Under the pieces are notes generated by a model. The model was not told the DNA's origin, made no database searches, and saw only the letters and a list, made by a program, of their open reading frames with translations. The position numbers and the translations under genes were made by a program. A stretch of 63,825 nt of DNA, counting the filler. It is 4 parts of 4 records of this genome, joined end to end, with 100 filler letters (N's around TTAATTAATTAA, not from the genome) between each part and the next. Parts side by side here need not be neighbours in the genome. Positions count along the whole stretch, not along the records: positions 42,408 to 58,689 come from SRR2962707_5075; 3 more parts are not named here. The stretch is one strand, 5' to 3'. Shown here one piece after another: positions 42,308 through 58,143 of the stretch; within the stretch, counting starts at the first letter, position 1; each line of letters begins with the position of its first letter.

Positions 42308-42407
42308 NNNNNNNNNNNNNNNNNNNNNNNNNNNNNNNNNNNNNNNNNNNNTTAATTAATTAANNNNNNNNNNNNNNNNNNNNNNNNNNNNNNNNNNNNN
42401 NNNNNNN
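42308..42407. other. Artificial contig spacer
   Basis: N-run, TTAATTAATTAA, N-run. Confidence 0.98.
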
Positions 42408-42477
42408 AGACGCAAAGAAAATGACCGAATCAATCGTTAAAGCGATGAACCACTAGGGTGGTGGAGAAGGTCAGTGC

Positions 42478-43464
42478 CTATTGCTTGCCGGCAAGGACAT
42501 GCTTGGCCAGCGAGGTCTCGATCGCTTCGGTGGAGAGGTCACGTGCGATAAAGACGATCTGCGACCGGCGGATATCATCGGGCCATCGGGGCAGGAATTG
42601 AGGGGGGTAAACCATGGTCTGGACCGCCTGGAGTACTATTGGGCGGTCTTCACCGCTTAACGCCAACAGCCCCTTCACCCGCAAGATGGACTTGCCGCGC
42701 GCCAACAACAGCAGCTCGAGCCATTTGACAAAGCGGGGCCAGTCGACATCGGTATCGAACTCTACAACGAAGGAGCCGATATCGGCGCTGTGCTCATGGT
42801 GGGGATGCCCGCTGTGATTATGTGTATGCGTCGCATGGGGACGGTCGCGCTTTCGGTCTGAAAATCCGAAAGGATCAGGCGTTGCCTCTGTGTCGACAAT
42901 CACCGCCTGGCTATTGATCGACTTGATTTGCCGTTCGAGCACGGTGACCAGATCAGGTGGCGCAAGATCGGCTTTCGAGATGACCACCGTATCGGCCATC
43001 CCCAATTGGTGCCGCGCTTCGGCAAAACGGGCGATGTTTTCGGCTCCGTTGATCGCATCGACAACCGCAAGCACGGGGCCCGCCTCAAAAATCGTATTGA
43101 GCCGCCGGTCGGTCATAATCAATTGCAGCACCGGCGCCGGATCGGCCAGGCCGCTGGTCTCGATCACGACCCGGGTAAATGCGGGGCCGCCGCCCCGTTG
43201 GCGCAAGTGATAGAGCTCAAGAAGGGTTGAGGCGAGGTCGTCACCGGCGCTGCAGCACAGGCAACCGGAATCGAGGAGAACGACATCCTCGGTGACTTCG
43301 CGCGCGATAAGATGGTCAAGCCCGACTTCGCCGAACTCGTTGATCAACACAGCGGTGTCGGCAAACTCGGGGCGGGCGAGAAGCCGCCCAAGAAGTGTGG
43401 TCTTCCCGCTCCCCAGAAATCCGGTCAGGACGTAAACCGGGATCAGATCCGGTGACTGCGACAT
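42478..43464 (-). CDS. COG0523/CobW-family G3E GTPase metallochaperone
   Basis: GFLGSGKTT, NEFGE, GCLCC, ETSG, His-rich linker, CobW_C domain. Confidence 0.9.
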   Translation of the reverse strand: MSQSPDLIPVYVLTGFLGSGKTTLLGRLLARPEFADTAVLINEFGEVGLDHLIAREVTEDVVLLDSGCLCCSAGDDLASTLLELYHLRQRGGGPAFTRVVIETSGLADPAPVLQLIMTDRRLNTIFEAGPVLAVVDAINGAENIARFAEARHQLGMADTVVISKADLAPPDLVTVLERQIKSINSQAVIVDTEATPDPFGFSDRKRDRPHATHTHNHSGHPHHEHSADIGSFVVEFDTDVDWPRFVKWLELLLLARGKSILRVKGLLALSGEDRPIVLQAVQTMVYPPQFLPRWPDDIRRSQIVFIARDLSTEAIETSLAKHVLAGKQ

Positions 43465-43465
43465 G

Positions 43466-43933
43466 TCACGCGATCTCGAAGATCGCGTCGACCTCCACCG
43501 GCACGTTGCGCGGCAGCGAATAGACGCCAACAGCCGCGCGGGCGTGGCGGCCCGCATCGCCGAACACCTCGACCATCAAATCCGAAGCGCCATTGAGCAC
43601 CTTGGGATGATCACCAAACTCGGGGACGGCATTTATGAAGCCGCCCAGCCGGATGACATTGACAACGCGGTCCAGGTCGCCATCCGCTGCATTGCGCAGA
43701 TGAGCAAGGATATTGATGGCGCAGATCCGTGCTGCATCCTGTCCCTGTTCGATTGTGTAATCGGCACCCAGCTTGCCGGTATAGACGTCCTTGCCATCGC
43801 GGGCGGGAACCTGGCCCGAGATATAGACGCTCTTGCCGAGCACTCGCGTCGGCACATAGTTTGCCAGAGGCGCTGACGTTGCGGGCAGAGTGATGCCGAG
43901 TTCGGCAAGGCGCCCCTCGATCTTTCCGGTCAT
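43466..43933 (-). CDS. RidA/YjgF-family protein
   Basis: ANYVP, ISGQ, NGASDL...FG..GRHARAAVG..SLP...PVE. Confidence 0.9.
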   Translation of the reverse strand: MTGKIEGRLAELGITLPATSAPLANYVPTRVLGKSVYISGQVPARDGKDVYTGKLGADYTIEQGQDAARICAINILAHLRNAADGDLDRVVNVIRLGGFINAVPEFGDHPKVLNGASDLMVEVFGDAGRHARAAVGVYSLPRNVPVEVDAIFEIA

Positions 43934-43950
43934 TGGTGTCTCCTGATGGT

Positions 43951-44700
43951 CTAAAAGTCGCTGAAAAGTTCCGAACGAGCCGCGAACGGAAGATCCGCCA
44001 TGCCGTTTTCCCCCAAGACGCTGAGAAGTGCGCGCTTGGTTGTGCGGATGTCGTGGACGATGCCGCGTTTGACCGCTGTGCGATCGCCCTTCTTGAGCGC
44101 GTCGAGGATCGCGCCGTGATCTGCGGCATTCCAGGGCATGGAGGGGACCAGCAACGACATATACATTGTCGGACCGAACTGGAGCCACAGCGCTTCGATA
44201 AGGGGCAGGATGACCTCCGAGCGGCACCCGCGATACAGGGTGAAGTGGAATTCCTGGTTGAAGGACAGGCAGCCCGCTATGTCGCGCTTTTCGATCGCCG
44301 CCAGAAGTTTGGCGTTGATTGCCTCCAGTTCCTTGATCAGGGCAGGCGTCGCATAGCGCGCAGCCATTTCAGCGGCCATGCCTTCGAGCGCCTCTCGAAC
44401 CGAAAAAAGGTCTTCGAGCTTGTCTGGGCCAAGGCGGGGAGGGGCGACCGATCCGTTCGCGGTTTCCTCGAGCGCGCCCGCGGCGACCAGCCGGCTGAGC
44501 ACTTCGCGCACGGGCATGGGGCTGGTGCCCAATCCGGCAGCGAGCTTGCGCAGGCTGAGAACCTGACCGGGAAGAAAGGCGCCGATCATCAGGCCCCTGC
44601 GCATGCGCGACAAGACATGTTCGTGAACCTGCCGGCGCTCGCCCTTTTTCTCAAGAGGGGTGTCCGGGTCCGGTGTCGAGGTGGCCTTGGCGTTCTGCAT
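43951..44700 (-). CDS. GntR-family regulator (FCD domain, FadR/VanR type)
   Basis: SLRKLA..LGTS.MPVRE wHTH; N.EFH...DH FCD. Confidence 0.9.
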   Translation of the reverse strand: MQNAKATSTPDPDTPLEKKGERRQVHEHVLSRMRRGLMIGAFLPGQVLSLRKLAAGLGTSPMPVREVLSRLVAAGALEETANGSVAPPRLGPDKLEDLFSVREALEGMAAEMAARYATPALIKELEAINAKLLAAIEKRDIAGCLSFNQEFHFTLYRGCRSEVILPLIEALWLQFGPTMYMSLLVPSMPWNAADHGAILDALKKGDRTAVKRGIVHDIRTTKRALLSVLGENGMADLPFAARSELFSDF

Positions 44701-44742
44701 CCGGATTCCCGTTCCGTTCAGATTGTAAGAAAAGACTTGTTC

Positions 44743-44782
44743 CTTGACTCGAGTCAAGTTGTGATCTCAATATGTGATCATA
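44743..44782. promoter_or_regulatory. Divergent promoter with tandem operator boxes
   Basis: Palindrome CTTGACTCGAGTCAAG (44743-44758); TGTGATCTCA (44760) and TGTGATCATA (44773). Confidence 0.7.
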
Positions 44783-44986
44783 AAATGCCGGCGACGACAA
44801 GCTTTTTGTCCTGTGCTCGTGGTGCCGTTCGCCAGATGGTGCCGACTATATATCAGGTTTTCCGGGGGCAAGGCGCGGTGCTTTTTCCCGATCCGTAATC
44901 GCGGCAAATCAAGGCGCGTTTCAAAAGGGCTCTGCCAGGCATAGCCGGAGCAAGGCCAAGTATCGACAAAGCATCGGGCACATCCC

Positions 44987-46306
44987 ATGAAAATGTCAAA
45001 TCATCCCACAAATATCGATCTGCGCCGGGAATTTTCACGCGTGCCGGCGCATGACGGCTTCGTGCTGAAAAATGCAGTACTGGCTTGGGGCGGACGCTTG
45101 TCGCTTTCCGAAATAGGCATCGCCGGTGGCAAGATTGCATTCATTGGGCCGGGGACCGCGCCTGGACAGTGTTGGCCGCAGATCGATCTTGCAGGGCGCC
45201 TGTGTCTGCCGGCCTTCGTCGATGCCCATGCTCACCTCGACAAGGGTCATGTGATCAGGCGGACGGGCACGGGTAATGGTACGCTCGATACGGCAATCGG
45301 CCTTGTCTCGAAAGACCGATCCGACCATTGGTCCGACGAGGACGTCAGCGCGCGCATGGCGTTTGGTATCGCCTGCGCCCATCACTATGGGACGGCGGTG
45401 CTGAAGACGCATATCGATTCACAGCCCGGCCAGCTTGAGATCTCGTGGGATGTGTTCGCGCGGCTACGCGAACAGTGGAGCGGCAAGATCGCGCTTCAGG
45501 GCTCCAGCCTGTTCTCGATTGTGCTGGCGCGGGATGCCGACTTCGTGGAAAAGGTCGCGCGCCGTGTAGCGCAAACGGGAGGAACGCTGGGGGCGGTTAC
45601 CTTTCCGGTGCCCGATCTCGATGATCTGCTCGACACGATGTTCAGTGCTGCGGCACGACATGGCCTCCTGCTCGATTTCCATGCGGATGAGACCGGAGAT
45701 ACGGCATCGGATACGCTCTCGCATATTGCAAGCGCGGCGCTGCGTCACGGGATGAAGAGCAAGGTCGTGGCGGGTCATTGCTGTTCGCTTGCCCTGCAGG
45801 ACGACGCGACGGTCGATCGGATCCTTGATCAGGTTGCCGAGGCCGATATCGGCCTGATTTGCCTGCCCGGATGCAATCTCCACCTTCAGGACCGGCGCTT
45901 TGATGGCACCACCCCGCGCTGGCGGGGCGTCACCGCGTTCAAGGAAGCAAGGGCTCGCGGCATCCGGGTTGCCTTGGGCTCAGACAATACCCGTGATCCA
46001 TTCTACCCATTTGGCGATCTCGACATGCTTGAGACCTTTGGTCTGGGCGTTCGCACACTTCATATCGACAGTCCGGTGAGTGCATGGATCGACACTGTCA
46101 CCGATACACCGGCGGGGATGCTCGGTGTCGATGCCGGCAAACTCGAGCCGGGCCAACGCGCCGATTTTACGATCTTTGAGGGGCGTGATCTCGGTGAAGT
46201 GCTTGCCCGGCGCGAGAGTGACCGGATCGTGGTGCGTGGCGGCCGGGCTATTGAGACGGTTCTGCCATCCTACAGAGAGCTCGACCCTCTGTTCACCCGG
46301 GCATAA
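44987..46306 (+). CDS. Cytosine-deaminase-like metal-dependent deaminase (group that includes pterin deaminases)
   Basis: DAHAHLDK, FHADE, GHCCSL, SDNTRDPFY. Confidence 0.85.
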   Translation: MKMSNHPTNIDLRREFSRVPAHDGFVLKNAVLAWGGRLSLSEIGIAGGKIAFIGPGTAPGQCWPQIDLAGRLCLPAFVDAHAHLDKGHVIRRTGTGNGTLDTAIGLVSKDRSDHWSDEDVSARMAFGIACAHHYGTAVLKTHIDSQPGQLEISWDVFARLREQWSGKIALQGSSLFSIVLARDADFVEKVARRVAQTGGTLGAVTFPVPDLDDLLDTMFSAAARHGLLLDFHADETGDTASDTLSHIASAALRHGMKSKVVAGHCCSLALQDDATVDRILDQVAEADIGLICLPGCNLHLQDRRFDGTTPRWRGVTAFKEARARGIRVALGSDNTRDPFYPFGDLDMLETFGLGVRTLHIDSPVSAWIDTVTDTPAGMLGVDAGKLEPGQRADFTIFEGRDLGEVLARRESDRIVVRGGRAIETVLPSYRELDPLFTRA

Positions 46307-46333
46307 AAAACGGCCGGGAAGATCCCGGCCGTT
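46305..46333. terminator. Terminator between convergent genes
   Basis: AACGGCCGGGA-AGA-TCCCGGCCGTT with an A-run on the left (U-tract for the minus-strand operon). Confidence 0.75.
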
Positions 46334-46356
46334 CGTTGATCGCAGCGTTGCGCCTT

Positions 46357-47349
46357 TTAGCTTGCTGTGGCGCCGACCTGGTAGAGTTCCATCTTGGTGC
46401 CGTCGGGGTCGGCGATATAGATCGTCAATCCGTAGGGCCCGTCATGGAGTTCGTTGAAAAACTTCACGCCGGCCGCCTTGAGCTTCTGGGACATGGCCCG
46501 CACGTCATTGACCTCGAACGCTATGTGATCGAGTTGGCGGTGGCCGCCTTCTCGTCCCTGGGTGAGCGCAATGCCCTGGTGGAAGGCGGTGAAAGCGCGC
46601 CCGTCTGCCAGCGGTTTGGCCGGGCGGATCGTAAAGCCAAGCTGCTCGGTGTAAAACTTTATCGATGTGTCGATGTCGTCGACAAGGATCAGCTGGTGTC
46701 CATATTCGAGCACACGGGGCGCAGACTGACTGTCAATCCATTCGATCATCGATTTTGAATCGGAAAGCTCGCACAGATAATGACCCCAAACCTTCTTTGC
46801 GGTCTCCTCCCACTCGCCATTCACGCCGGAAATGCAATCGTCGACAGCGATGACATCGAAATCGCGCAGATAGGCTTCGCGAATTGAGGTTTCCACACAA
46901 GCGTTCGTGGTCGCACCGGTGACAAACAGATGCTGTACGCCAAGCATGCGCAACATCATTTCCAGCCGGGTTTCATAGAAGGCGCCAAACCGGTGCTTGC
47001 GGATGACGAATTCGGGATTGACCTCGGAAAGCGGCTTGAGCTCGTCCACAAACTCCTCGTCCCAGCTACCCGCAAGTGCTGACACCTGCTTGCGCTTTGA
47101 CGTGTGCCCGGCCAGCTTCTTTCGAGCGCGGCTGTGGTCGGTCGCAAAGTGCTCCTGCTTGGTCCAGATCACCGGTACCCCGGCGTCCTGGCAGCGCTTG
47201 ATCAGCTTCTGCAGCGGGGAAACGATGGTTGCAAGGCGCTTGGTGTCGAGACCGGAAACACCCAGCGTGCCCTTCTCATGGATAAAGGCATTCTGCAGAT
47301 CGATGACGAGCAAAGCGGATTTGCGTGCTTCCAGTTGATCGAGACTCAT
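46357..47349 (-). CDS. Isochorismatase-like cysteine hydrolase fused to a VOC (glyoxalase-fold) domain
   Basis: IDLQN, RKHRF, TNACV (D-K-C triad); C-terminal GH...FYTEQLGF...DHIAF.V...DPDG..MEL. Confidence 0.88.
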   Translation of the reverse strand: MSLDQLEARKSALLVIDLQNAFIHEKGTLGVSGLDTKRLATIVSPLQKLIKRCQDAGVPVIWTKQEHFATDHSRARKKLAGHTSKRKQVSALAGSWDEEFVDELKPLSEVNPEFVIRKHRFGAFYETRLEMMLRMLGVQHLFVTGATTNACVETSIREAYLRDFDVIAVDDCISGVNGEWEETAKKVWGHYLCELSDSKSMIEWIDSQSAPRVLEYGHQLILVDDIDTSIKFYTEQLGFTIRPAKPLADGRAFTAFHQGIALTQGREGGHRQLDHIAFEVNDVRAMSQKLKAAGVKFFNELHDGPYGLTIYIADPDGTKMELYQVGATAS

Positions 47350-47546
47350 TTCTTGTTTTCCTCCATATCGATCCCAAGAACACCGGCGCGGCCCCAGCTG
47401 TCCTTGGGGGTATCGTGAATGACCACGTGCAGGTGTTCGGGCTTACAGGCCGCCTCATCAACCATGGCTTTGGTTATAGCTTTGACGAGGTTGCGCTTCT
47501 GGTCGACGGTGCGTCCTTCCCAGAATTCAACGATCACGAATGGCAT
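47346..47546 (-). CDS. 4-oxalocrotonate tautomerase family protein
   Basis: 66 aa; catalytic Pro1 after Met, GR11T..QK, W.R.G; AGGAG RBS. Confidence 0.9.
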   Translation of the reverse strand: MPFVIVEFWEGRTVDQKRNLVKAITKAMVDEAACKPEHLHVVIHDTPKDSWGRAGVLGIDMEENKK

Positions 47547-48237
47547 GTTTGTTCTCCTCTTTTGGGGCTTTGGTGCTGGCTGACCCGGCCCAGGCGGGGA
47601 CAGGCGGAGCAAATCCGGTAACCAGATCGCTGTCTCCCGTGTTCTTGCCGGAAATCAGCCAGAGCGGGCGGTTTGTGTAGTTGATGAGGGCCTGTTCTTT
47701 CATGCAGATGCGATTTGCAGGGAAGCCGGGATCCCGAACGAAATGGCTCGTCGCGGACATCAGTCTGACAACGAGGAGGGGCGCATCGACCATCGCCAGA
47801 GCTTCCACCGCGCGCACGATCTCCGCATGCTCCACGCAGGCAAGGATCTCAGCTCCTTCCGATATGTCCAGCACAGCTACCGCACCGACCAGCGGATCGA
47901 CTGGCCAATAGCGGCCTTCGGCATCCAGCGGAGCGAATGACGCATAATCCCGGGCGCGCAAGTAGAGTTCGCTATCCCAAAGGATGATGTCGTCGCCCAA
48001 TACCCTGCGCGCGCGATCGACCATTTCAGGTGACTCGCAGACCTCGAGAAAACGCCAGGGGTCGGTAAGGGCGGCAGCGGCGCCCCATGGGTTGTGTATG
48101 CCGGACAGTTGCTCCTGCATCAGTTCGGCGCGGTCCTGCCACAACGCGCGTACGGCGTCCGACAGGAGGGGACTTTCACCCAAGATAGGCGTTCGTCCGG
48201 CCAGAGCAGGGTCGCCGCTATCGGCTTGCCGGATCAT
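47527..48237 (-). CDS. Degenerate PhyH (phytanoyl-CoA dioxygenase)-like protein
   Basis: LG.DIILWDS, YWP..P, R.M.ATS.F.R, RPLWL..G fit PhyH-like proteins, but HxD is absent; overlaps both neighbouring genes. Confidence 0.55.
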   Translation of the reverse strand: MIRQADSGDPALAGRTPILGESPLLSDAVRALWQDRAELMQEQLSGIHNPWGAAAALTDPWRFLEVCESPEMVDRARRVLGDDIILWDSELYLRARDYASFAPLDAEGRYWPVDPLVGAVAVLDISEGAEILACVEHAEIVRAVEALAMVDAPLLVVRLMSATSHFVRDPGFPANRICMKEQALINYTNRPLWLISGKNTGDSDLVTGFAPPVPAWAGSASTKAPKEENKHAIRDR

Positions 48238-49583
48238 CAGGCCGGCACCGTCACACAGCGACCCCGCCCATAAAGGGTTTCGGAGACTTGGCCGTTTTCG
48301 TAAACCACGTCGCCACGCGCCACGGTCAGCACCGGCCAGCCCTTGAGTTTCCAGCCCTCATAGATGCAGGTGCCTTTGCCTGTGTGTACGACCTCACGTT
48401 CTTCGTCGAGGTCGACAAGTACCAGATCGGCATCGAAGCCGACTTCGATGTCGCCCTTGCGGGGCCACAGGCCGAAGCGGCGCGCGGGGTTGTACGAGTT
48501 GACCTCGACCAAACGCGAAAGCGGCAGGCCGCGCTCATGAACCCCGAAATGGAGCATGAGCGAAAGCTCCCAGGGGAAGCTGACCACACCGGGAAATTCG
48601 GTCCACAGATCTTCGCCCTTTTTGGGCAGGAACGGTACGTGATCGGTGCCGAGCGAATAGACCGAGCCGTTGAGCATGCCGTCCCAAAGGCCCTCGAGTT
48701 CCGTGCGGTCGCGCAGGGGCGGAGAGATCTTGGCCTTCATGTCGAGATCTTCGTCGTAACAGGTGCGGGTCAGATAGTGCGGACAGGTCTCGACGGTTAC
48801 CTGAACGCCGCGGGCCCGCGCCTCTGCGGCGAGAATGGGTCCCATGCCCACCGAGGTGTGCACCAGATGGAGCGAGCACCCGGTCTTTTCCGCCAGGAAG
48901 ATCATTCGGCGGATGGTCTCCACCTCGCAAAAGGCAGGACGGGACTCGGTGTAGGCACCAAGATCCTGGCGGCCGGTCTCGGCGATTTCCTTTTTGATCC
49001 AGGAGGCGATCTGTGTGTTTTCGCAGTGAACGTTGATCACGCCGCCGGGCACCTCGGCGAGAATGCGCATTGCCGCATAGACCCAGCCATCGGTCGCCGG
49101 CACAATGCCGATCGGGTTATCGGGCTCGTAGCCGAAATAGCATTTGAAGGATTTGACCCCCGTGTGCTCGATGATCCTGGGGATTTCAGCGATGTGTTCT
49201 TCACGCTGAATGCCGAAATGAAAACCGAAATCGATGACCGAATTTTCTTCGCCAATGGCTTTGCGCTCATCGTAGAAGGGCAGGTAGGATTCCTTGAGAT
49301 TGCGGATGTAGAGCAGGGCGGTGGTCACGCCGCCCGAGGCCGCGGCGGCCGTTTCGGTCCGCATGTCCTCATCAAAGGGGAATTTCACGCCCAAATGGCA
49401 GTGCGGGTCGATCAGACCCGGCATCAACACGCGTCCCCCAGCGTCGATGGTCCGCGTCGCCTCGGGCAGGACATCGTTGGAGCCCGTGGCGATGATCTTT
49501 TGGTCCTTGACGGCAACCCCGCCAAAGAACTCTCCATCATGGCGTATGACCCGCGCGTTTTTGATAACGAGATCGGCTTTCAT
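48237..49583 (-). CDS. Cyclic amidohydrolase (allantoinase/dihydropyrimidinase/dihydroorotase-like)
   Basis: DPHCH, SFK (carbamylated Lys), VHCEN, VH, ETCPHYL, GTDH. Confidence 0.88.
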   Translation of the reverse strand: MKADLVIKNARVIRHDGEFFGGVAVKDQKIIATGSNDVLPEATRTIDAGGRVLMPGLIDPHCHLGVKFPFDEDMRTETAAAASGGVTTALLYIRNLKESYLPFYDERKAIGEENSVIDFGFHFGIQREEHIAEIPRIIEHTGVKSFKCYFGYEPDNPIGIVPATDGWVYAAMRILAEVPGGVINVHCENTQIASWIKKEIAETGRQDLGAYTESRPAFCEVETIRRMIFLAEKTGCSLHLVHTSVGMGPILAAEARARGVQVTVETCPHYLTRTCYDEDLDMKAKISPPLRDRTELEGLWDGMLNGSVYSLGTDHVPFLPKKGEDLWTEFPGVVSFPWELSLMLHFGVHERGLPLSRLVEVNSYNPARRFGLWPRKGDIEVGFDADLVLVDLDEEREVVHTGKGTCIYEGWKLKGWPVLTVARGDVVYENGQVSETLYGRGRCVTVPA

Positions 49584-51555: not shown

Positions 51556-51619
51556 TGCTTCCTCCTCAAGGCCATGTAGGTGCGACGCCAAATCGCGGTA
51601 AACCATACGTGCCAAAATA

Positions 51620-51656
51620 TGAGATCACACTTTATGATCACAAATTAAATTGTCAA
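51620..51656 (-). promoter_or_regulatory. Promoter of the opine-DH operon with tandem operator boxes
   Basis: Minus-strand TTGACA (51656-51651), N16, TAAAGT; TGAGATCACA (51620) and TATGATCACA (51633). Confidence 0.7.
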
Positions 51657-51671
51657 GCAGTCCGGCCACGA

Positions 51672-52925
51672 TTACCCGGCCAGTTTCATACTGCCGGAAT
51701 CGTCGCTGTCCACGCATTCGGCGATCATGTCGGCGGTTGCGGCCGATAACGTCCAGCCCAGATGACCGTGTCCAGTATTGTAATAAACGCCCGGCAGGCG
51801 GCCCTTGCCGACGCGCGGCAGCATGGATGGCATCATGGGGCGAAGACCCGCCCAAGGGACAACGCGACGCGTGTTGGTTCCCGGAAACAGCGTGCGGGTC
51901 CAGGTGACGAGTGGTTCGATACGCTCGCTGCGGATGTCGCGGTTGACGCCGTTGAACTCGGCCGTCCCTGCAACGCGAAAACGGTCCTTGCCCAGCCGCG
52001 ACGTGACGATTTTGGCCTTGTCGTCGAGCAGGCTCACCCAGGGCGCCGCATTCTGGCTTTGCTCGTCGTCGAGATGAATGGTGATCGAGTATCCCTTCAC
52101 CGGATAGACGTTCACCCGGTCCCCCGCCATGGCTGCCAGGGCGCGGCTGCCGCAGCCAGCACAGATGACGATGCCGTCGAAGCCTTCCTTTTGCACTGAC
52201 GGTGCGCGATCCCCTGATCCCTGCCACTCGATTGTGTGTTGTCCGTTTGCGAAGCGAAGCCGCGTTACCTGCGCGTCGAATGCGAACCGTACACCCTTTC
52301 TCTCACAGGCATTGGCGAGCCCGGAGGTGAACTTATGGATATCGCCGGTGGAGTCCGATGGGGTAAAAAAGCCGCCATAGATGTCGCCGCGAACCGTGGG
52401 TTCGATTGCGCGGACTTCTTCGGGCGAGATCGCGCGCCGATCCAGTCCCCCCTGGGTAAGCAGAGAATTCACCTTCTTGGCGTGATCAAAGCTCGATTTG
52501 TCCCAATAGAGGTGGAGTATGCCGCGCCGTTCGAGATCGAAAGCGATATTTTCGTTCTCGGCAATCTCGAACAGGTGCTTGCGCGCGGCAATGGCAAGCC
52601 GGGTGGTCTCCACGGTATTTTCCCGGTAACGACCAATATTGCTCATGAACTCGGCCAGCCACGAGTATTTGTGCCATGAGGGCGAAGGGTTGAGCAGCAG
52701 GGGCGCGTCGCGCTGGAGCATCCACTTCATGCCCTTGAGGAGCGTGGACCAATGGTTCCAGACTTCAGCATTGCTGGCAGACAGCTGACCGCCATTTGCA
52801 AAAGAGGTTTCCATCGCCGCGTAGCGGTTCTGATCGAAGACGGTGACGGTATGGCCGCGCGCCATGAGCGCGTAGGCCGTTGTGATGCCGGTGATGCCGG
52901 CGCCAATAACAGCGAGTTTGGGCAT
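51672..52925 (-). CDS. dadA: D-amino acid dehydrogenase (FAD-dependent)
   Basis: GAGITG, TSFANGGQLS, PVKGYS, WAGLRP, GHGHLGWT. Confidence 0.85.
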   Translation of the reverse strand: MPKLAVIGAGITGITTAYALMARGHTVTVFDQNRYAAMETSFANGGQLSASNAEVWNHWSTLLKGMKWMLQRDAPLLLNPSPSWHKYSWLAEFMSNIGRYRENTVETTRLAIAARKHLFEIAENENIAFDLERRGILHLYWDKSSFDHAKKVNSLLTQGGLDRRAISPEEVRAIEPTVRGDIYGGFFTPSDSTGDIHKFTSGLANACERKGVRFAFDAQVTRLRFANGQHTIEWQGSGDRAPSVQKEGFDGIVICAGCGSRALAAMAGDRVNVYPVKGYSITIHLDDEQSQNAAPWVSLLDDKAKIVTSRLGKDRFRVAGTAEFNGVNRDIRSERIEPLVTWTRTLFPGTNTRRVVPWAGLRPMMPSMLPRVGKGRLPGVYYNTGHGHLGWTLSAATADMIAECVDSDDSGSMKLAG

Positions 52926-52985
52926 TGTGTTTCCCATAAATTGGATCTTTGAAAGCGCCGCGATTTTCGCCGCGCCGATGGTCCC

Positions 52986-53178
52986 CAATCTGTCGCTGTT
53001 ACCTGAGAGCTTTCCGTGGGCCATGGCCACGGTTTCCCCTTCGGTGGGCAGGCGGACTGCAACGATCCACTTGCCTCTCTCCAGATGTTCTCGCTGCCTG
53101 GTCAGCTTTGCCTGAGAGATTCCTGGGGGGTTGCTCCGTCGGCGCCGACATTTTCAGCCGGTCTCTCCCCGGCAGCGG
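52986..53178 (-). ncRNA. Tandem glycine riboswitch
   Basis: Minus strand GGAGAGA..CGCCGACGGAGCAA..CTCTCAGGCAAA..GACC, then TCTGGAGAGA..CACCGAAGGGGAA..CTCTCAGGTAA..GACAGA. Confidence 0.93.
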
Positions 53179-53184
53179 AAGGTA

Positions 53185-53212
53185 CCGCCGGGCCATCGCG
53201 CTGGCCCGGCGG
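53185..53212. terminator. GC-rich hairpin directly after the amidohydrolase stop
   Basis: CCGCCGGGCCA / TGGCCCGGCGG; no good U-tract on the minus strand. Confidence 0.45.
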
Positions 53213-53217
53213 CAGTT

Positions 53218-54657
53218 TCAGTTTCCTTCGTCGTAAAGCGTTGTCGTTGTATCAACGTCGTCCTTGTGCAGCCCGGCGCGGATTACCGCATCGGCAGCCA
53301 GTTCACGGGCCTTGCGGCGGATTTCCTTCTCGTCAACGCCATAGACCTGGCCGTCCCCATACACCTTGACGCCATTGACCCAGGTCTGGGAAACAGACGC
53401 CGTCGAGGCGGAGTAAACAAGCGCCTGCAGCGGATCATGGAAGGGTGTCCATTCGACGTGATCGAGATCGAACAGGATGAAATCAGCCTTCTTGCCGATC
53501 TCGAGTGAACCGATTTCATCGTCCCACATCAGAGCTTTGGCGCCCTCGATCGTTGCGGCACGCAGCGCCTGCCGGGCGGTGAAGATGTCGGGCTGAACCC
53601 GCGCATCCTTGAACATTCCCGCGACCAGAAGCATCTGGCGCATGAGGTTCATGTTGCCGGCTGCCGATACGCCATCCGTCCCGAGACCGACCTTGACCCC
53701 GGCGGCAACCATCTCGGGATATTTCCCGATGGCGGTCGCGCCCTTGCCCAATTTGAACGAGGAGCATGGGCAAAACGCTACCGCGGCGCCGCGGTCGGCG
53801 AGAAGCTTGACCTCATCGTCGGTGACAGCGGCACAATGGGCGATCACGAGGTTCTTGCGAATTCCGCCCCCATTGTCGATGCGGGTGACTGGCCATACGC
53901 CGTACTTGCCCTCACACACTTTGGCTTCTTCGATCGAAGTGGCCAAATGGTAAGTGGTGCCGACACCCAGACGCTCGGCCAACTCGACAGCGCCCACGTG
54001 CAACTCCAGCGTGCAGGGCTCCTTGCCTTCGATATTGACCCAGCAGCGCGCCCGTCCGTCGAGGGCGCCGTTATATTTGACGACGCATTTTTCGAGTTCT
54101 TCAAGGGCTGTCTTGGCGTCGGGGAAGAAATGGTGGTCGGCCATTTCCTCGGTCCATCCCTTTGGCAATTCAGCGGGGCGGTTATCGGCTGCATGGCGCC
54201 CGGTTATGCCCCGGATGCCGGTCGGCTCCATCGCCCTGATGACGATGCCCGGATCATACTGCGAGCCCATATCGAGAAAGCACGTCGTGCCGCAGCGCAG
54301 CATCTCGGTAATCCCGAGAAGAGCGCCCCAATATTCGTCCTCATCGGTCACATGCGCGTAAAACGGCTTGGCCCAGTGAAACACCCACGCGCGGGTGTTG
54401 AGATTGTCGGGAAACACGGCGCGTGACAGCGTTTCAGAAAGGTGGACGTGGCTGTCCACAAAGCCAGGGCACATGCCCAGCATCGACCCGTCGATTATCG
54501 TGCCGAAACTGTTCCGATCGTGCCGATCGGCTATTTCGTCCGACGCGCCGATATCGGCGATCCGATCCTCGTCAACGACGACGCTTGCCTTGCGCAATAC
54601 GGTATCGTTCGCATCGACAGTGAACACGAAGTTCAGGTTTTCGATCAGTGTCCGCAA
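53218..54657 (-). CDS. TRZ/ATZ (MTA/SAH-deaminase-like) amidohydrolase
   Basis: DSHVH, E.LR.GTT, YHLATS, AHC, CP.S, GTDG; TTG start with GGAGG. Confidence 0.85.
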   Translation of the reverse strand: MRTLIENLNFVFTVDANDTVLRKASVVVDEDRIADIGASDEIADRHDRNSFGTIIDGSMLGMCPGFVDSHVHLSETLSRAVFPDNLNTRAWVFHWAKPFYAHVTDEDEYWGALLGITEMLRCGTTCFLDMGSQYDPGIVIRAMEPTGIRGITGRHAADNRPAELPKGWTEEMADHHFFPDAKTALEELEKCVVKYNGALDGRARCWVNIEGKEPCTLELHVGAVELAERLGVGTTYHLATSIEEAKVCEGKYGVWPVTRIDNGGGIRKNLVIAHCAAVTDDEVKLLADRGAAVAFCPCSSFKLGKGATAIGKYPEMVAAGVKVGLGTDGVSAAGNMNLMRQMLLVAGMFKDARVQPDIFTARQALRAATIEGAKALMWDDEIGSLEIGKKADFILFDLDHVEWTPFHDPLQALVYSASTASVSQTWVNGVKVYGDGQVYGVDEKEIRRKARELAADAVIRAGLHKDDVDTTTTLYDEGN

Positions 54658-54688
54658 CGGTTCCTCCCCGGATAGAGCGCGGTATTTG

Positions 54689-55861
54689 TCAGGCGATGGA
54701 GCGCGATTGCGCCTGTTGGCGACTCTGACCGCACACGATCAGCCTGTCGGTATTGGAATAGTCCGAAAGCAGTTCGGACCCATTGGCCGTCACCAGGAGC
54801 ATGTCCTTGTTCTGCATGCCGAAGCCATGTCCGGTATCGTAACAAAGCGGCTCGAAGCCAAGCACCATGTTTTCCTCGATGGGCGCGTCGGATCCGGGCT
54901 TTCCAAGCACCGGTGTCAGGCCGAGATAGGGGTCTTCATGCAAGTGGAGCCCGATCCCATGCCCGACGAACGATATCGGTGGCAAGTTCATCTGTGACAG
55001 CTTTGCGATGAAACTGTCGTATATGGCACGGCAGCTTGCGCCGGGCCGTACCTTGTCCATGATCTCATATTTGCAGTCGACCAGATGGGACCAGATGTCG
55101 TCGGCATGGTCGGGAGCCTGGCCCACGACAGCAGTGCGGCAGACGCCGGCCTGGTACCCATCGATAACCGAAAAGATCTCGACCCGGCACACATCGCCGC
55201 GCTTGAGGACCCGATCCGAGGGGCCGACATTGGGCAACACGCTGCGCTCGCCGGTCGCCACGATCAGCAGCTTGAAGTGTTCAGCGCCCAGCGAATAAAC
55301 ATTGCGGGTCAGATGCCCGGCAATATCCATTTCCGAATCCCCCTCATCGACCGAGGCCAGGGCATCGTAGATGGCCTGGTCGGCGATACGGGAGAGCTTG
55401 CGCAACAAGGCGATCTCGCCCGGCGTCTTGATCTGCCGCAGCCGCGCCAGAATACCCTCGGCAGGAGCAAAACGTGCATCGGGCAGGGCGGCCTGCAGGC
55501 GCATGAGATCGCCCGCGGGAAGATAGTCCATTTCAATGGCTATGCGCGCGGAGCCGAGCCCGAGTTCGTTCAGCTGGTCGGCCAGTACCACCATTGGATC
55601 GTCTGAAAATTCCGCCCATATCCGCGTGGGGACTTCAGGCTGCTTGCGCCGGATCGTGCTTGCCTCCATGTCGACGCCGAACAGTGCTTTTGTGCCGTCC
55701 GCGGTTACAATTGCCATGGCATGGCGGTGACGGATCAGCGGCTGGCTGGGCACTACAAAGCCGCTAACATAGGCAAAGTTTTCCGGCGAGCAGGAGATAA
55801 TGGCGTCCAAGCCGTTCTCGCGCATGGCCGCTGTTTGTTTTTCAATGATTTCCGCACGCAT
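54689..55861 (-). CDS. M24 pita-bread fold hydrolase (creatinase/Xaa-Pro peptidase-like)
   Basis: Creatinase_N domain, R.IKT..EI, GHGIG..LHE.P, FEP. Confidence 0.85.
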   Translation of the reverse strand: MRAEIIEKQTAAMRENGLDAIISCSPENFAYVSGFVVPSQPLIRHRHAMAIVTADGTKALFGVDMEASTIRRKQPEVPTRIWAEFSDDPMVVLADQLNELGLGSARIAIEMDYLPAGDLMRLQAALPDARFAPAEGILARLRQIKTPGEIALLRKLSRIADQAIYDALASVDEGDSEMDIAGHLTRNVYSLGAEHFKLLIVATGERSVLPNVGPSDRVLKRGDVCRVEIFSVIDGYQAGVCRTAVVGQAPDHADDIWSHLVDCKYEIMDKVRPGASCRAIYDSFIAKLSQMNLPPISFVGHGIGLHLHEDPYLGLTPVLGKPGSDAPIEENMVLGFEPLCYDTGHGFGMQNKDMLLVTANGSELLSDYSNTDRLIVCGQSRQQAQSRSIA

Positions 55862-55878
55862 GGTAACGTCCCTCCCAC

Positions 55879-57039
55879 TCAGATCGCGATCTGGTATTTT
55901 TCGATTTTCTTGATGTCGACATCGATGCCCATGCCCGGCCCGTCCGGAACCACGATCGCCCCGTCCTCAAATTTCATCGGCGCAACCAGCAGGTCGTCCT
56001 TATAGTAGATGCCGCCGATCTGACCGCTCTGGGCTTCGGCAGGCACGGATACGGGAATGACGCAGGAAAGCGTCACTGCAGGAGAAGCCGCAGCAAGCTG
56101 GACATTGGCAAGGTTGCCCACACCCGTCTCGATCGAGCCGTTGACATTGCACAGGAGGCCCGCGGCGCGGCACACCGCACCCACCTCCATGGCCTTGTAG
56201 AGCCCACCAGCCTTGGTGGTGTAGATCGAGACGATCTGGACCTGACCCTGATTGATGATCTGGATGGCGTCGTGCGCGTTCCACGCTGATTCATCGGCCA
56301 TCACCGGCGCATCGATGCGCCGTGCGACATCCGATATGCGCTCGATCCCCATGACAGGCTGCTCGACATATTTGATACGGCAATCTTCAAAGCGCCGGAT
56401 GATCTGAACGGCCTCGCCGGCGGACTTGTAGCCTTCATTGGCATCCACGCAGAGTTCCATTGCGTTCCCCGCCGCCTCGCGGACGGCATGAACCATGGCG
56501 ACGTCGCGTTCCGGATCGACACCGATCTTGATCTTGATCGTCTTGATCCCCTCGGCAGCAAGCTTGGCGGCCTCGGTGCGCGCCTCATCGATGGAGATCA
56601 GGCCGATCGAGTGGGTGACCGGGACGCGGTCGCGGGACTTTCCGCCCAAAAGGACGTGTACCGGAACGTCGAGCCAACGGCCCGTTACGTCGTAAACCGC
56701 AAATTCCACAGCCGCTTTCGCATAAGGATAGCCACGAATGACCGCATCCATCCGGGTATGAAGTTCGGCGATATTGCCCAGCTCGATGCCCGTAATCGCG
56801 GGGGCGAGATAGGTATCGATGACCGATTTCACGATGATCGCGGACTCGCCGAAATAGCGTCCGAATTCCCCACCCCAATCCTTGAGAGCCGGCGCCTCGC
56901 CCCAACCGACCCGTCCGTCGCTGTCGGTGACCTTGACCAGAACGTAGCGCCCGATCACTTCGGTCAATCCTGCCCATTTGTGCTCGCGCCGGGTGGGGAG
57001 CTGCACAACAAGGGTTTCAACTGTCTTGATGGTGGGCAC
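55879..57039 (-). CDS. Enolase superfamily, muconate-lactonizing enzyme/racemase subgroup
   Basis: GWGE, KIK, DANE, EQP, ADES, PG.G; GTG 57039 after AAGGA. Confidence 0.88.
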   Translation of the reverse strand: MPTIKTVETLVVQLPTRREHKWAGLTEVIGRYVLVKVTDSDGRVGWGEAPALKDWGGEFGRYFGESAIIVKSVIDTYLAPAITGIELGNIAELHTRMDAVIRGYPYAKAAVEFAVYDVTGRWLDVPVHVLLGGKSRDRVPVTHSIGLISIDEARTEAAKLAAEGIKTIKIKIGVDPERDVAMVHAVREAAGNAMELCVDANEGYKSAGEAVQIIRRFEDCRIKYVEQPVMGIERISDVARRIDAPVMADESAWNAHDAIQIINQGQVQIVSIYTTKAGGLYKAMEVGAVCRAAGLLCNVNGSIETGVGNLANVQLAAASPAVTLSCVIPVSVPAEAQSGQIGGIYYKDDLLVAPMKFEDGAIVVPDGPGMGIDVDIKKIEKYQIAI

Positions 57040-57077
57040 GGAATTATCCTTTTGACGAAACACAGGCTACGTTGTAG

Positions 57078-57114
57078 TGAGATCACCGATTGTGATCACA
57101 CATTACTGTTGACA
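57078..57114. promoter_or_regulatory. Divergent promoter region with tandem operator boxes
   Basis: TGAGATCACC (57078) and TGTGATCACA (57091); TTGACA at 57109 (+). Confidence 0.7.
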
Positions 57115-57185
57115 TTGGGCATCGTCAAGCATGGATGTTCGGCTTGTGGGCAACGACGATGCGGCCGCTGTGGAGGACGACCAAA

Positions 57186-57482
57186 GTGATTGTTGAGACA
57201 ACGAACTATTACGCCAAGCCCGGGAGGGAAGCCGAAGTGCTAACGCAGCGGCGGCTGGCAACGGCAATCCGCAAGAGCCTGGGATTGTCGGAAGGCCGCA
57301 CGTTTGTGCTGTTGGAAGCAAACGGTCCCAGCGTGAAATGGCAGTGCGAGTTTCCATCGCAAGCTGCTTACCGTGAGGACATGGAGGCAAGGAACGGATC
57401 GACCGAATTTGCCGAGGCGCGGGCGCAGATGCACACCCTTATCGAACGGTTCGAGCGACACCTGCACGAGGAGGTAGGGTAG
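57186..57482 (+). CDS. Small dimeric alpha+beta barrel (NIPSNAP/ABM-like) protein
   Basis: GGAGG-GTG; Y.AKPG...V, W.CEF.S..AY pattern. Confidence 0.6.
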   Translation: MIVETTNYYAKPGREAEVLTQRRLATAIRKSLGLSEGRTFVLLEANGPSVKWQCEFPSQAAYREDMEARNGSTEFAEARAQMHTLIERFERHLHEEVG

Positions 57483-57604
57483 CGGGACAGGGCATTCCGC
57501 ATCGTGGAATTCGTAAAGGTGCGGGGTCGCCCGCCATGTGTATGCGCCCTATCGGGTAGGGCGTCGCGGCAATCGGGCCGCTTTCCGACATATTGGAGTT
57601 TGCT

Positions 57605-58024
57605 GTGAGAACGACGACGAATCTGGATTTGAACGACGCCGGCCGATTGCTCGAAGGGGCGCGCGAACGGGCAGCTGCAATCGGTGTTCCGATGTGTGTC
57701 GCTATTACGGACGCGGCCGGTGACCTGGTTGCGTTCGAGCGGATGGACGGCGGGAAAATCACCAGCATCACGATTGCTATCGACAAGGCTTATACGGCGG
57801 CGGCGGCCAAAAAGGCGACGCACGAATATGGTGCCGCCAGCCAGCCCGGGGCGCCCGCATACGGCATTAATTCCGCGATCAGCGGCCGCCTGATGGTCGT
57901 TGGCGGCGGGCTCCCTGTTGTCGTGGCCGGCGAAATCGTCGGAGGCGTGGGCGTCAGTTCGGGAACGCCCGATCAGGATCGCGATGTTGCGCAGGCAGCA
58001 ATCGACCACCTAAACCGCGCGTAG
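57605..58024 (+). CDS. GlcG/HbpS-family heme-binding protein
   Basis: VAITD..G.L.AFERMDG, IAIDKAYTA, GGG.P, GG.GVS.G...QD. Confidence 0.9.
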   Translation: MRTTTNLDLNDAGRLLEGARERAAAIGVPMCVAITDAAGDLVAFERMDGGKITSITIAIDKAYTAAAAKKATHEYGAASQPGAPAYGINSAISGRLMVVGGGLPVVVAGEIVGGVGVSSGTPDQDRDVAQAAIDHLNRA

Positions 58025-58143
58025 AGTCCGCTTGCAGTGGTGGGGTGGCCCTTGTGGGAGGGCGCTCGCCAAATCGGTCAATGAAGGCCCGCACAACCGA
58101 TGTGGTTGGCGGGCCCTGTTTTTGGCGGGTGCTTGTCCCCGAT

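Follow-up and report, generated by a model that had tools for sequence, protein, structure and literature searches.

A mobile GntR-controlled gene cluster of Alphaproteobacteria that may convert an N-heteroaromatic carboxylate to glycine

Which compound is degraded, and by what chemistry, by a gene cluster that combines several amidohydrolases with two NAD(P)-dependent reductases, an enolase-superfamily protein and a GntR regulator? The question is raised by a 16.3-kb assembly piece (positions 42408-58689) of the 63.8-kb window, by which the whole stretch of DNA analysed is meant. The cluster occupies the entire piece and was described in the original prediction as one GntR-controlled catabolic system without a named pathway. 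This description holds: the gene set fits no described pathway that we found, and two of the 17 open reading frames scanned, encoding the deaminase (PRK07583) and the DadA-type enzyme (PRK12409), reach a curated NCBIfam cut-off. The comparisons given below support the view that the cluster is one co-regulated, conserved catabolic system. On balance, it probably represents a mobile regulon, repressed by a GntR protein of the FCD type, which imports an N-heteroaromatic (oxo)carboxylate and degrades it by reductive and hydrolytic steps, without oxygenases, to glycine and probably a 2-oxoacid. The genes and families named earlier were found in place with Pfam and NCBIfam profiles, but a DadA-type dehydrogenase, a tandem glycine riboswitch and an unlinked importer had been missed. 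The original observation was largely right, if incomplete; the interpretation drawn from it is plausible in broad terms, and its details are unproven. The features of the cluster are as follows.

42478-43464, minus strand: COG0523 (CobW/G3E) GTPase, putative metallochaperone, last gene of the gntR-ridA-cog0523 unit (Pfam cobW 143 bits, CobW_C 80 bits)
43466-43933, minus strand: Rid-family protein of the YjgF_endoribonc subfamily, ridA (PF14588, 112.6 bits)
43951-44700, minus strand: GntR regulator with FCD ligand domain, gntR (PF00392 and PF07729)
44760-44782: operator site 1, in the divergent gntR/deaminase promoter region
44987-46306, plus strand: cytosine-deaminase-like amidohydrolase (NCBIfam PRK07583, 496.5 bits against a cut-off of 403)
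46357-47349, minus strand: isochorismatase-like cysteine hydrolase fused to a VOC/glyoxalase domain, isoVOC (Pfam)
47346-47546, minus strand: 4-oxalocrotonate-tautomerase-family protein (4-OT, taut), 66 amino acids (aa), with Pro1 (NCBIfam PRK00745, 63.6 bits)
47527-48237, minus strand: 236-aa protein, unk236, weakly PhyH-like (no Pfam family)
48237-49583, minus strand: cyclic amidohydrolase of the hydantoinase/allantoinase/dihydropyrimidinase class, cycAH (Pfam)
49580-50470, minus strand: DpaA-like NAD(P)-binding oxidoreductase, dpaA (PF16924, 73.9 bits)
50467-51555, minus strand: opine-dehydrogenase-family oxidoreductase, odh, first gene of a six-gene operon (PF02317, 129 bits)
51620-51642, minus strand: operator site 2, before odh, overlapping the -10 element of a promoter-like site at 51656-51629
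51672-52925, minus strand: DadA-type FAD dehydrogenase, dadA, 417 aa (PF01266, 243 bits; PRK12409, 727 bits against a cut-off of 494)
52980-53180, minus strand: tandem glycine riboswitch, two RF00504 aptamers, in the leader of the DadA gene (covariance model)
53218-54657, minus strand: TRZ/ATZ (cog0402-type) amidohydrolase, trz (Pfam/NCBIfam)
54689-55861, minus strand: M24 'pita-bread' protein of the creatinase/prolidase type, m24 (Pfam)
55879-57063, minus strand: enolase-superfamily protein of the muconate-lactonizing enzyme (MLE) subgroup, eno (Pfam/NCBIfam)
57078-57100: operator site 3, in the divergent enolase/NIPSNAP-like promoter region
57186-57482, plus strand: NIPSNAP-like dimeric alpha+beta-barrel protein, about 98 aa (start set by alignment with relatives)
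57593-58024, plus strand: GlcG/HbpS-like protein (PF03928, 133.5 bits)

The predicted regulon

The putative operator consists of two 10-bp palindromes with the consensus TGTGATCACA, whose starts lie 13 bp apart (TGTGATCACA-N3-TGTGATCACA). When up to three mismatches are allowed, it is matched three times in the window and not once in 100 shuffles, and the three sites precede gntR/deaminase, the odh operon and the enolase operon. Around site 2 the best promoter-like match is TTGACA-16-TAAAGT, and the operator shares bases with its -10 hexamer, a placement expected of a repressor site. No site was found by the scan of the window before the DadA gene, where the riboswitch stands instead, or before GlcG. 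The same operator had been said to precede all transcription units; this is correct for gntR/deaminase, odh and eno/NIPSNAP-like, and incorrect for the DadA gene and GlcG.

Loci in other species were collected by a one-genome-per-species scan with the DpaA-like protein as query, which reaches close relatives only and returned 43 loci besides the source genome, 34 of them full-length. Gene counts are from tblastn (at least half of the query length, E <= 1e-10) unless ORF families are named; the latter derive from GC3-filtered clustering, which under-calls some genes, and tblastn was preferred. In these relatives the operator lies within 400 nt upstream of eno in 29/30 loci, odh in 36/41, gntR in 36/39 and the gene for a substrate-binding protein (SBP) in 28/30, as well as upstream of the deaminase in 20 of the 22 relatives that have it. 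Genes internal to the operons give the opposite result, with no operator upstream of trz, m24, cycAH, isoVOC, cog0523 or dadA in any of the 18-38 loci available for each, dadA included. A fourth copy of the operator, beside a TTGACA element, is found in the same genome on another contig, upstream of an SBP-permease-ATPase operon for a NitT/TauT ABC importer, whose SBP is the ortholog of the binding protein that is linked to the cluster in relatives. The arrangement recurs in Pelagibacterium, where operator and TTGACA likewise precede an unlinked SBP-permease-ATPase operon. The regulator has the winged-helix and FCD domains of its class, and the predicted palindromic site occurs at its own and at neighbouring promoters, as in GntR/FCD regulons; the GntR protein is presumed to be the repressor of this regulon. 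The start of gntR was placed at the ATG that gives 249 aa, which matches the relatives.

The coordinates show overlapping or tight junctions along the odh-dpaA-cycAH-unk236-taut-isoVOC run, confirming the overlapping start and stop codons noted previously. Between the convergent deaminase and isochorismatase genes, at 46300-46340, a GC-rich hairpin with an A-run and a T-rich flank resembles a two-way terminator; it is absent from the consensus scan list.

Distribution, variants and mobility

The carriers of the cluster are soil and marine Alphaproteobacteria and include Aminobacter, Mesorhizobium, Shinella, Bradyrhizobium, Nitratireductor, Microvirga, Labrys, Cucumibacter, Pelagibacterium and Rhodobacteraceae, among others. 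The usual gene order is NIPSNAP-like< >eno-m24-trz-[riboswitch-dadA-(glcB)-(glcG)]-odh-dpaA-cycAH-unk236-taut-isoVOC <deaminase >gntR-ridA-cog0523-SBP-permease-ATPase. In the 34 full-length loci the individual genes are present as follows.

eno, m24 and taut: 34/34
odh and gntR: 33/34
ridA: 32/34
trz: 31/34
ABC permease (ORF family): 31/34
cycAH, isoVOC, unk236 and cog0523: 30/34

Across all 43 relatives, odh was found in 42, taut in 41, gntR in 39, ridA in 38 (median identity 75%), cog0523 in 36 and the NIPSNAP-like gene in 26. The genes therefore do co-occur elsewhere, with their order kept among the 43 loci of other species, contrary to the condition of no co-occurrence under which the original prediction would have been refuted. 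The comparison seeded with the DpaA-like protein delivered both a conserved core and an operator-linked ABC importer. The proposed NIPSNAP-GlcG unit survives in its first gene; GlcG is matched in a single relative (1/43, 34% identity) and is a lineage-specific neighbour outside the conserved set.

The system is rare and patchy, as a DpaA-like match at E <= 1e-80 was found in none of a sample of 400 other genomes of the same class, a negative that applies to the sampled genomes and not to others. Median identities for cycAH, trz, m24, eno, dpaA and isoVOC are 78-88% across different orders, the cluster is plasmid-borne in Aminobacter, Phyllobacterium and Microvirga, and plasmid pAA03 of A. aminovorans carries a partial second copy between two identical TniA/B/Q modules. 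The high identity across orders, the plasmid location and these transposition modules together point to horizontal spread. The pAA03 copy (L058, NZ_CP015008.1 34622-63740) runs from cog0523 to a truncated TRZ gene between Mu-transposase-C/TniB/TniQ modules; it has a composite-transposon-like layout on a conjugative plasmid, and Hachiman and AbiEii defence genes adjoin it.

Reduced loci suggest a division of the gene set into two parts. L036, L037, L038 and L041 keep odh, dpaA and gntR, together with differing subsets of eno, m24, taut, VOC, ridA and the importer, and all four are without cycAH, unk236 and the isochorismatase domain; trz is also gone except in L038. A three-subunit molybdenum hydroxylase of the xanthine-dehydrogenase family is encoded at L036 and L041 (with CoxG) and also at the full cluster L006. 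NCBIfam gave no specific name for the subunits of this enzyme, for the SBP or for the Rieske oxygenase described below.

An entirely different explanation is that the cluster is a mosaic of unrelated small operons that travel together on plasmids and share a regulator by chance. Variation in content would suit this, with the deaminase, the glycine module, an amidase-SBP insert, a porin and a Rieske oxygenase differing between genomes, as would the unlinked ABC operon in two genomes and the position of part of the cluster between two identical transposition modules on pAA03. A mosaic would hardly be expected, however, to show a single operator at four promoters conserved across bacterial families, core genes that stay together in 30-34 of the 34 full-length loci with overlapping reading frames, and reduced variants that lose a coherent functional block rather than random genes. 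We regard it as highly improbable.

Several loci carry additional genes. In two metagenome-assembled genomes (MAGs) a protein of 511-516 aa without Pfam match is encoded between cog0523 and eno, with an operator before it (L044 2724-4259, L045 2668-4218); it has a signal-peptide-like N-terminus and a C-terminal aromatic residue and is read as a dedicated outer-membrane porin. In Aminobacter, L001 (7393-9676) and L016 contain an insert between the deaminase and the isochorismatase gene that has its own operator copy and encodes an extra amidase (PRK08310, 475 bits, above the cut-off) and a second NMT1-type binding protein. A Rieske/VanA-type oxygenase gene adjoins the NIPSNAP-like gene in all five Bradyrhizobium loci (L014, e.g. 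1553-2572, L020, L034, L043 and L046), which are without the deaminase; the oxygenase could provide an entry step, N- or O-demethylation of a methylated form of the substrate. The MAG locus L047 (2626-14406), from an uncultured alphaproteobacterium, has a 59%-identical DpaA-like gene and a VOC gene among homologs of the yeast uracil-catabolism proteins URC1 (GTP_CH_N and GTP cyclohydrolase II) and URC4 (DUF1688). An HpaB-like hydroxylase, a luciferase-like monooxygenase, hydrolases of the M20 and S15 types and a TctC receptor are encoded in the same stretch, which may be a bacterial URC-type pyrimidine cluster.

The surroundings of the cluster within the window are artificial. The window was put together from at least four assembly pieces, with the same 100-base linker (44 N + TTAATTAATTAA + 44 N) at 29948-30047, 42308-42407 and 58690-58789, the second of which forms the left end of the cluster piece. 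Since the linkers bound the piece 42408-58689, the genes beyond it (a LysR regulator, a sugar ABC system, a formyltransferase fragment and a TetR/aldehyde dehydrogenase group) are not neighbours of the cluster. The gene fragments at the edges, a formyltransferase at 42011-42304 and an ABC ATPase at 58144-58665, owe their truncation to the assembly and should not be taken for pseudogenes. The latter (minus strand) is the C-terminal part of a MalK-type protein, recognised by a TOBE_2/MalK OB profile match; it is unrelated to the NitT/TauT importer and is found in 0/43 relatives. Another piece encodes a LuxR-type regulator with an autoinducer-binding domain, which an FG-GAP/ASPIC-UnbV protein and a di-haem oxidoreductase-like gene adjoin (32045-32779, 32828-35913). 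As for the origin of the cluster piece, its DpaA-like gene is 100% identical to a contig of the metagenome-assembled Rhizobiales genome L004, and the nearest cultured relative is Pelagibacterium sediminicola, with 93% identity in the DpaA-like protein.

The glycine module and the predicted active sites

One indication of what the cluster produces comes from the DadA-type gene, which separates the two long operons. Within its leader of 290 nt are two RF00504 aptamers, at 53089-53180 (62.8 bits) and 52980-53092 (48.9 bits), both of which score above the gathering score of 32 and stand directly upstream of the gene, as in the glycine riboswitch family. The riboswitch is also present in L001-L003, L008, L014, L041 and L042, and in the reduced, divergent cluster L041 the riboswitch-DadA pair occupies another position. 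The dadA gene itself occurs in 18/43 relatives and 17/34 full-length loci, and malate synthase G (glcB, ORF family) follows it in 9/34 full-length loci and on Aminobacter plasmids. A DadA-type enzyme of Cupriavidus necator is reported to oxidise glycine to glyoxylate, and by analogy the DadA-type enzyme of the cluster is read as a glycine dehydrogenase/oxidase. The recurrence of the riboswitch-DadA pair, the malate synthase G that often follows and the C. necator precedent together suggest that glycine is the product of the pathway and is turned into malate.

Among the hydrolases, cycAH has a canonical binuclear site, with the motifs DPHCH, SFK and GTDH in 40/40 orthologs and, in the window protein, two further histidines within VHCEN and LVHTS, which places it in the cyclic amidohydrolase family. 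Its scores with the allantoinase (273-286 bits) and hydantoinase (268 bits) models are both under the equivalog cut-offs, and L-hydantoinase 1gkr is the best solved match (214 bits). The isochorismatase domain has the triad of its family (D17, K118 and C151, with the motifs present in 38-39 of 39 orthologs), and its nearest solved chains are RutB (78.9 bits) and then triuret/biuret-type cysteine hydrolases. The deaminase shows the canonical HxH / HxxE / D arrangement and matches E. coli CDA at about 98 bits; it is optional, being present in 22/43 relatives and 17/34 full-length loci. Two Aminobacter homologs (49-52% identity) are labelled 'Pterin deaminase' at their source; this label and statements in papers are what would tie the enzyme to pterin deaminases of the Arad3529 type. 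A 46%-identical deaminase (PRK07583, 699 bits) belongs to a different cluster on plasmid pRL12 of Rhizobium johnstonii 3841 (L057, NC_008378.1 314322-339434), together with a NitT/TauT-type ABC system, an FAD-binding oxidoreductase, an NAD(P)H oxidoreductase, RidA, a creatininase-family gene, a LysR regulator and a PaoABC-type Mo enzyme, and homologs occur on 142 Rhizobium plasmids.

Other members of the cluster were assigned by fold or by distant profile matches. The DpaA-like protein scores 194 bits with the DpsA model (cut-off 261), odh matches N-(1-D-carboxylethyl)-L-norvaline dehydrogenase (CENDH, 1bg6) at 154 bits, and the COG0523 GTPase stays under every NCBIfam equivalog cut-off; the COG0523 paper of Haas (2009) offers no connection to this gene context. 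The NIPSNAP-like protein was modelled by AlphaFold2 (AF2) with a pLDDT of 95, and Foldseek aligned it with 5k9f and 1vqy at query-normalised TM-scores (TMq) of 0.80-0.82. For unk236, the AF2 model (pLDDT 80) gave a Foldseek match to 2a1x (E 2e-4, TMq 0.39), and a protein Atlas lead to PhyH (0.91) is weak. Both original guesses thus hold as fold statements. As an Fe(II)/2-oxoglutarate dioxygenase of the PhyH type, unk236 is not convincing: the fold match is weak and the HxD/E...H triad was not seen, the sole invariant histidine being H48 and the presumed HxD position reading W87-D88-S89-E90 in the alignment, a mapping made without structural superposition.

Three proteins, eno, M24 and TRZ, which are all encoded in one operon, have lost residues that define their families, bearing out the earlier remark on non-canonical active sites. 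The eno protein keeps the KxK motif (K177, K179) and the metal ligands D207, E233 and D257, but the beta6 catalytic lysine required of the MLE subgroup, present in 3i4k, 4m0x, 3my9, 2p88 and 1jpm, is replaced by Tyr282. This tyrosine occurs in 37/37 orthologs, and the TIGR02534 model gives 249 bits, short of its cut-off of 335. In the M24 protein, aligned with 3q6d and 5cdl, the five ligands of the metallopeptidases (D, D, H, E, E) are changed at three positions (D to E227, D to G239 and E to K352), with the histidine and one glutamate kept, so that two metal ligands are lost; by motif, the changes are found in 34/35 (E/G) and 33/35 (NK) orthologs. The TRZ/ATZ protein retains the HxH, H, H and D metal site, but the catalytic Glu of the HxxE motif of cog0402-type deaminases and TRZ/ATZ hydrolases is Thr240 (compared with 4f0r and 3hpa), a threonine found in 37/37 orthologs; the glutamate is present in E. 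coli SsnA and GuaD. Ring deamination, one of the reactions originally assigned to these families, may therefore be the wrong chemistry for the TRZ enzyme. With median ortholog identities of 80-84% for eno, trz and m24, the sameness of the substitutions in nearly all orthologs suggests that they are selected features of active proteins and do not reflect decay.

These sites bear on the possibility that the substrate is an acyclic N-substituted amino acid, such as a strombine- or alanopine-type opine, an N-carbamoyl or N-amidino amino acid or a dipeptide with a D-residue, processed by an opine dehydrogenase, an enolase-type epimerase, an M24 peptidase and a D-amino-acid dehydrogenase. Family relationships agree with this: odh is nearest to CENDH, dipeptide epimerases and N-acylamino-acid racemases are among the solved MLE-subgroup matches of eno, most M24 enzymes are Xaa-Pro peptidases and the DadA model is named D-amino acid dehydrogenase. 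Cleavage of a strombine-type opine also yields glycine and a 2-oxoacid. The residues do not agree, as eno is without the second lysine of two-base racemases and epimerases and M24 is missing two of the five peptidase metal ligands; the riboswitch, moreover, indicates glycine and not a D-amino acid as the DadA substrate, and the hydantoinase, ureido hydrolase, TRZ protein, deaminase and Mo hydroxylases would be unexplained. We give this explanation little credence.

A pathway for creatinine/creatine or hydantoin would use the same enzymes differently, with the deaminase as creatinine deaminase, cycAH opening (1-methyl)hydantoin, the isochorismatase domain as N-carbamoylsarcosine (or N-carbamoylglycine) amidase and the metal-poor M24 protein as a creatinase-like amidinohydrolase, giving sarcosine or glycine. 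The known route from creatinine through 1-methylhydantoin and N-carbamoylsarcosine to sarcosine, together with creatinase, draws on the same four superfamilies as the cluster. The best solved match of cycAH is an L-hydantoinase, the isochorismatase domain matches the N-carbamoylsarcosine amidase chains 3eef (65 bits) and 1nba (40 bits), M24 matches creatinase 1chm (54 bits) with its metal ligands lost, and the riboswitch signals glycine as a product. The Rieske/VanA-type oxygenase beside the cluster in five Bradyrhizobium loci is a possible N-demethylase, and the related R. johnstonii pRL12 deaminase lies near a creatininase-family gene. On the other hand, these matches to characterised enzymes are weak (40-65 bits), M24 scores higher with prolidases (98 bits) than with creatinase, the 1-methylhydantoinase that is known depends on ATP and belongs to a different family from cycAH, and the deaminase is optional. 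Seven conserved cluster genes would be idle: the two NAD(P) reductases, the enolase, 4-OT, VOC and Mo hydroxylases are among those left without a role, and the substrates offer no stereocentre to a racemase or lyase. The reduced variants retain precisely such genes and lose the hydantoinase and carbamoylase. This pathway is therefore unlikely.

Candidate pathway and its alternatives

No paper describing the cluster was found in the literature on the gene set or on the Aminobacter plasmid pUSP1, for which general plasmid statistics alone were found, in a search that did not cover the supplement of PMC12391406. Among known systems, the one with the most similar logic is the reductive uric acid pathway found in E. 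coli and gut anaerobes, with XdhD, YgfK, SsnA, HyuA, YgeY, YgeW/YqeA and YgeX (bioRxiv 10.1101/2025.05.19.654654). As reported there, an enzyme of the Mo hydroxylase family prepares the ring, dearomatisation by a reductase follows, the rings are opened by a TRZ/ATZ-type amidohydrolase and a hydantoinase, and stepwise removal of ureido groups leads to an amino acid. The proteins compared are not orthologs. Its reductases are of the opine dehydrogenase and DpaA-like types in place of the flavin/Fe-S protein YgfK, its ureido cleavage would be performed by an isochorismatase-like cysteine hydrolase, and the product signalled is glycine, where the urate pathway gives 2,3-diaminopropionate and pyruvate. 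The E. coli cluster was accordingly rejected as a counterpart, given the different enzyme set and identities of 24% (TRZ/SsnA, with the HxxE glutamate kept in SsnA) to 32% (cycAH/HyuA).

The Rut pathway resembles the cluster in two ways: among solved structures RutB matches the isochorismatase domain best, and a Rid-family protein (RutC) would act at an enamine/imine step. It was rejected since the cluster has no RutA luciferase-like monooxygenase and the RutB model, with 93 bits, stays far under its cut-off of 378; the cluster hydrolase is also fused to a VOC domain, and ring opening would presumably be hydrolytic, by cycAH. Hyu systems likewise combine a cyclic amidohydrolase with an N-carbamoyl-cleaving hydrolase and a possible racemising enzyme, but the carbamoylase of the cluster is an isochorismatase-family cysteine hydrolase, and neither a hydantoin racemase nor an NCS1 permease was seen in the loci examined. 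Like the creatinine route, a Hyu system would give seven conserved genes nothing to do.

A lumazine/pterin cluster I has been reported for Cupriavidus sp. LA-1 (Commun Biol 2025, PMC12391406), comprising a pterin deaminase, a GTP-binding protein and a three-subunit Mo hydroxylase. According to that paper, the GTP-binding protein aids maturation of a zinc isomerase, and lumazine clusters of Rhizobiales and Rhodobacterales have a cytosine-deaminase-like protein instead of the pterin deaminase (PMC12391406). The downstream enzymes given there are an Amidohydrolase_2 isomerase and UbiX/UbiD, followed by ordinary xanthine catabolism (PMC12391406); the main-text sections consulted do not mention an opine dehydrogenase, DpaA-like protein, hydantoinase, isochorismatase, TRZ, M24 or enolase. 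With no LuDH, DHLI alpha/beta or UbiX/UbiD families among the cluster genes of the window, and a Mo hydroxylase only in the variants L006, L036 and L041, lumazine cluster I was also rejected.

Glycine is the classical product of the clostridial-type purine route, which raises the possibility of a hydrolytic purine pathway in aerobes, an O2-independent alternative to uricase, running from xanthine through ureidoimidazole carboxylate, aminoimidazole carboxylate, imidazolone and formiminoglycine to glycine. The product would be as expected, cycAH and a RutB-like ureido hydrolase would suit the first two steps, xanthine-dehydrogenase-family hydroxylases occur in variants, and the TRZ family includes guanine and 8-oxoguanine deaminases. 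The TRZ protein is, however, without the deaminase Glu that E. coli GuaD retains, NAD(P)H reductases and an enolase would be unneeded, and the reduced variants have the hydroxylase and are without nearly all the amidohydrolases that purine would require. In five of five cluster-bearing genomes checked, XdhB and OHCU decarboxylase score above curated cut-offs, in four of them as adjacent genes, and canonical purine catabolism elsewhere in these genomes counts against a purine role of the cluster. Such a role seems quite improbable.

The reading we prefer is an imported N-heteroaromatic (oxo)carboxylate degraded to glycine. A heterocycle is suggested by the Mo hydroxylase linked to L006, L036 and L041, by the likeness of the isochorismatase domain to RutB and to biuret/triuret hydrolases, by the canonical site of cycAH, by the pterin-deaminase label of deaminase homologs and by the cytosine-deaminase-like protein reported for alphaproteobacterial lumazine clusters. 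The GntR repressor would hold the four promoters until the substrate or an intermediate binds the FCD domain, and the NitT/TauT importer would take up the N-heteroaromatic oxo-carboxylate. The genes missing from the reduced loci could form an extension module (cycAH, the RutB-like cysteine hydrolase, the Glu-less TRZ enzyme and the PhyH-like protein) that strips a (fused) uracil-type ureide ring first: cycAH would open this ring, the RutB-like hydrolase would then take off the carbamoyl group, and the TRZ enzyme would replace or cleave the leftover amino or amidine function. An optional entry for the amino form of the substrate may be provided by the cytosine/pterin-deaminase-like enzyme, and in variants without the extension module the Mo hydroxylase might make the oxo-heterocycle from an unsubstituted ring. 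The common core would comprise the DpaA-like and opine-DH-like reductases, the ligand-depleted M24 protein, the Tyr-enolase, VOC, 4-OT and Rid. In this core the two NAD(P)H-dependent reductases may dearomatise the ring that bears the N-C(COOH) unit, at the C=N and C=C bonds beside the carboxylate, after which M24 would open the resulting lactam or amidine. The Tyr-enolase, with its one remaining lysine base, might abstract the alpha-proton and break the C-N bond by beta-elimination, and 4-OT and Rid would carry the enamine through the imine to hydrolysis, giving glycine and a 2-oxoacid. Glycine would switch on DadA for conversion to glyoxylate, from which malate synthase G would form malate, and the COG0523 GTPase may load metal into one of the amidohydrolases, much as the GTP-binding protein of the Cupriavidus lumazine cluster serves its zinc isomerase. 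Of the earlier suggestion of an N-rich ring dismantled to an opine-like intermediate and then to an amino acid plus a 2-oxoacid, the general idea of ring breakdown to an amino acid gains indirect support from the riboswitch-DadA pair, from malate synthase G in relatives and from the Mo hydroxylase in three variants; the specific chain of intermediates stays conjectural.

As to the substrate, our leading guess, a tentative one, is a pteridine (lumazine or pterin, possibly as the 6-carboxylate) degraded via a pyrazine carboxylate. Of the substrates considered it fits the largest number of features, since the deaminase, the stripping of a ureide, the need for reductive dearomatisation, the alternative entry by a Mo hydroxylase and the glycine would all follow from it. 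It is a more doubtful proposition that the cluster encodes the first genetically defined pathway to break a pyrazine ring, in which the ureide ring is stripped, a hydroxypyrazine carboxylate is reduced and opened by M24, and the Tyr-enolase acts as a C-N lyase to give glycine and pyruvate.

Several points weigh against the degradation of an N-heteroaromatic carboxylate to glycine. Every enzymatic step is assigned from superfamily membership, and such assignment is weakest at eno, M24 and TRZ because their family-defining residues are gone. The SBP gives no ligand clue, its best NCBIfam match being to the SsuA family at 52 bits. The glycine module is found in just 18/43 loci and could be a passenger for general glycine detoxification. 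The co-occurrence counts are conditional on the DpaA-like gene, which was the search query, and the reduced variants are few (L036, L037, L038, L041 and L047), two of them being MAG contigs of uncertain completeness. For the pteridine guess in particular, the LuDH/Amidohydrolase_2/UbiD pathway, already described and reported for Rhizobiales and Rhodobacterales, makes a second pteridine route less needed.

The bacterial fates of pteridines, pyrazines and imidazole or pyrimidine carboxylates are poorly mapped, and the cluster presents a regulon with clear limits, comprising about 18 genes, an operator that is defined, an importer of its own and glycine as output signal, in cultivable, non-pathogenic strains such as those of Aminobacter, Shinella, Mesorhizobium and Pelagibacterium. 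It would link a COG0523 GTPase to amidohydrolases instead of zinc starvation, and a glycine riboswitch would have been recruited into a mobile catabolic island. Misleading labels that have spread in databases ('resolvase', 'dipicolinate synthase subunit', 'Xaa-Pro peptidase', 'cytosine deaminase') would be corrected as well. If the pyrazine proposal were true, the cluster would hold three new reaction types in three well-studied superfamilies, with the riboswitch as an overflow valve, and would act on pteridines (pterin or lumazine), for instance their 6-carboxylates, the leftovers of folate and biopterin decay. More generally, three of its subfamilies are without residues regarded as essential, and solving the substrate would probably assign a new reaction to each.

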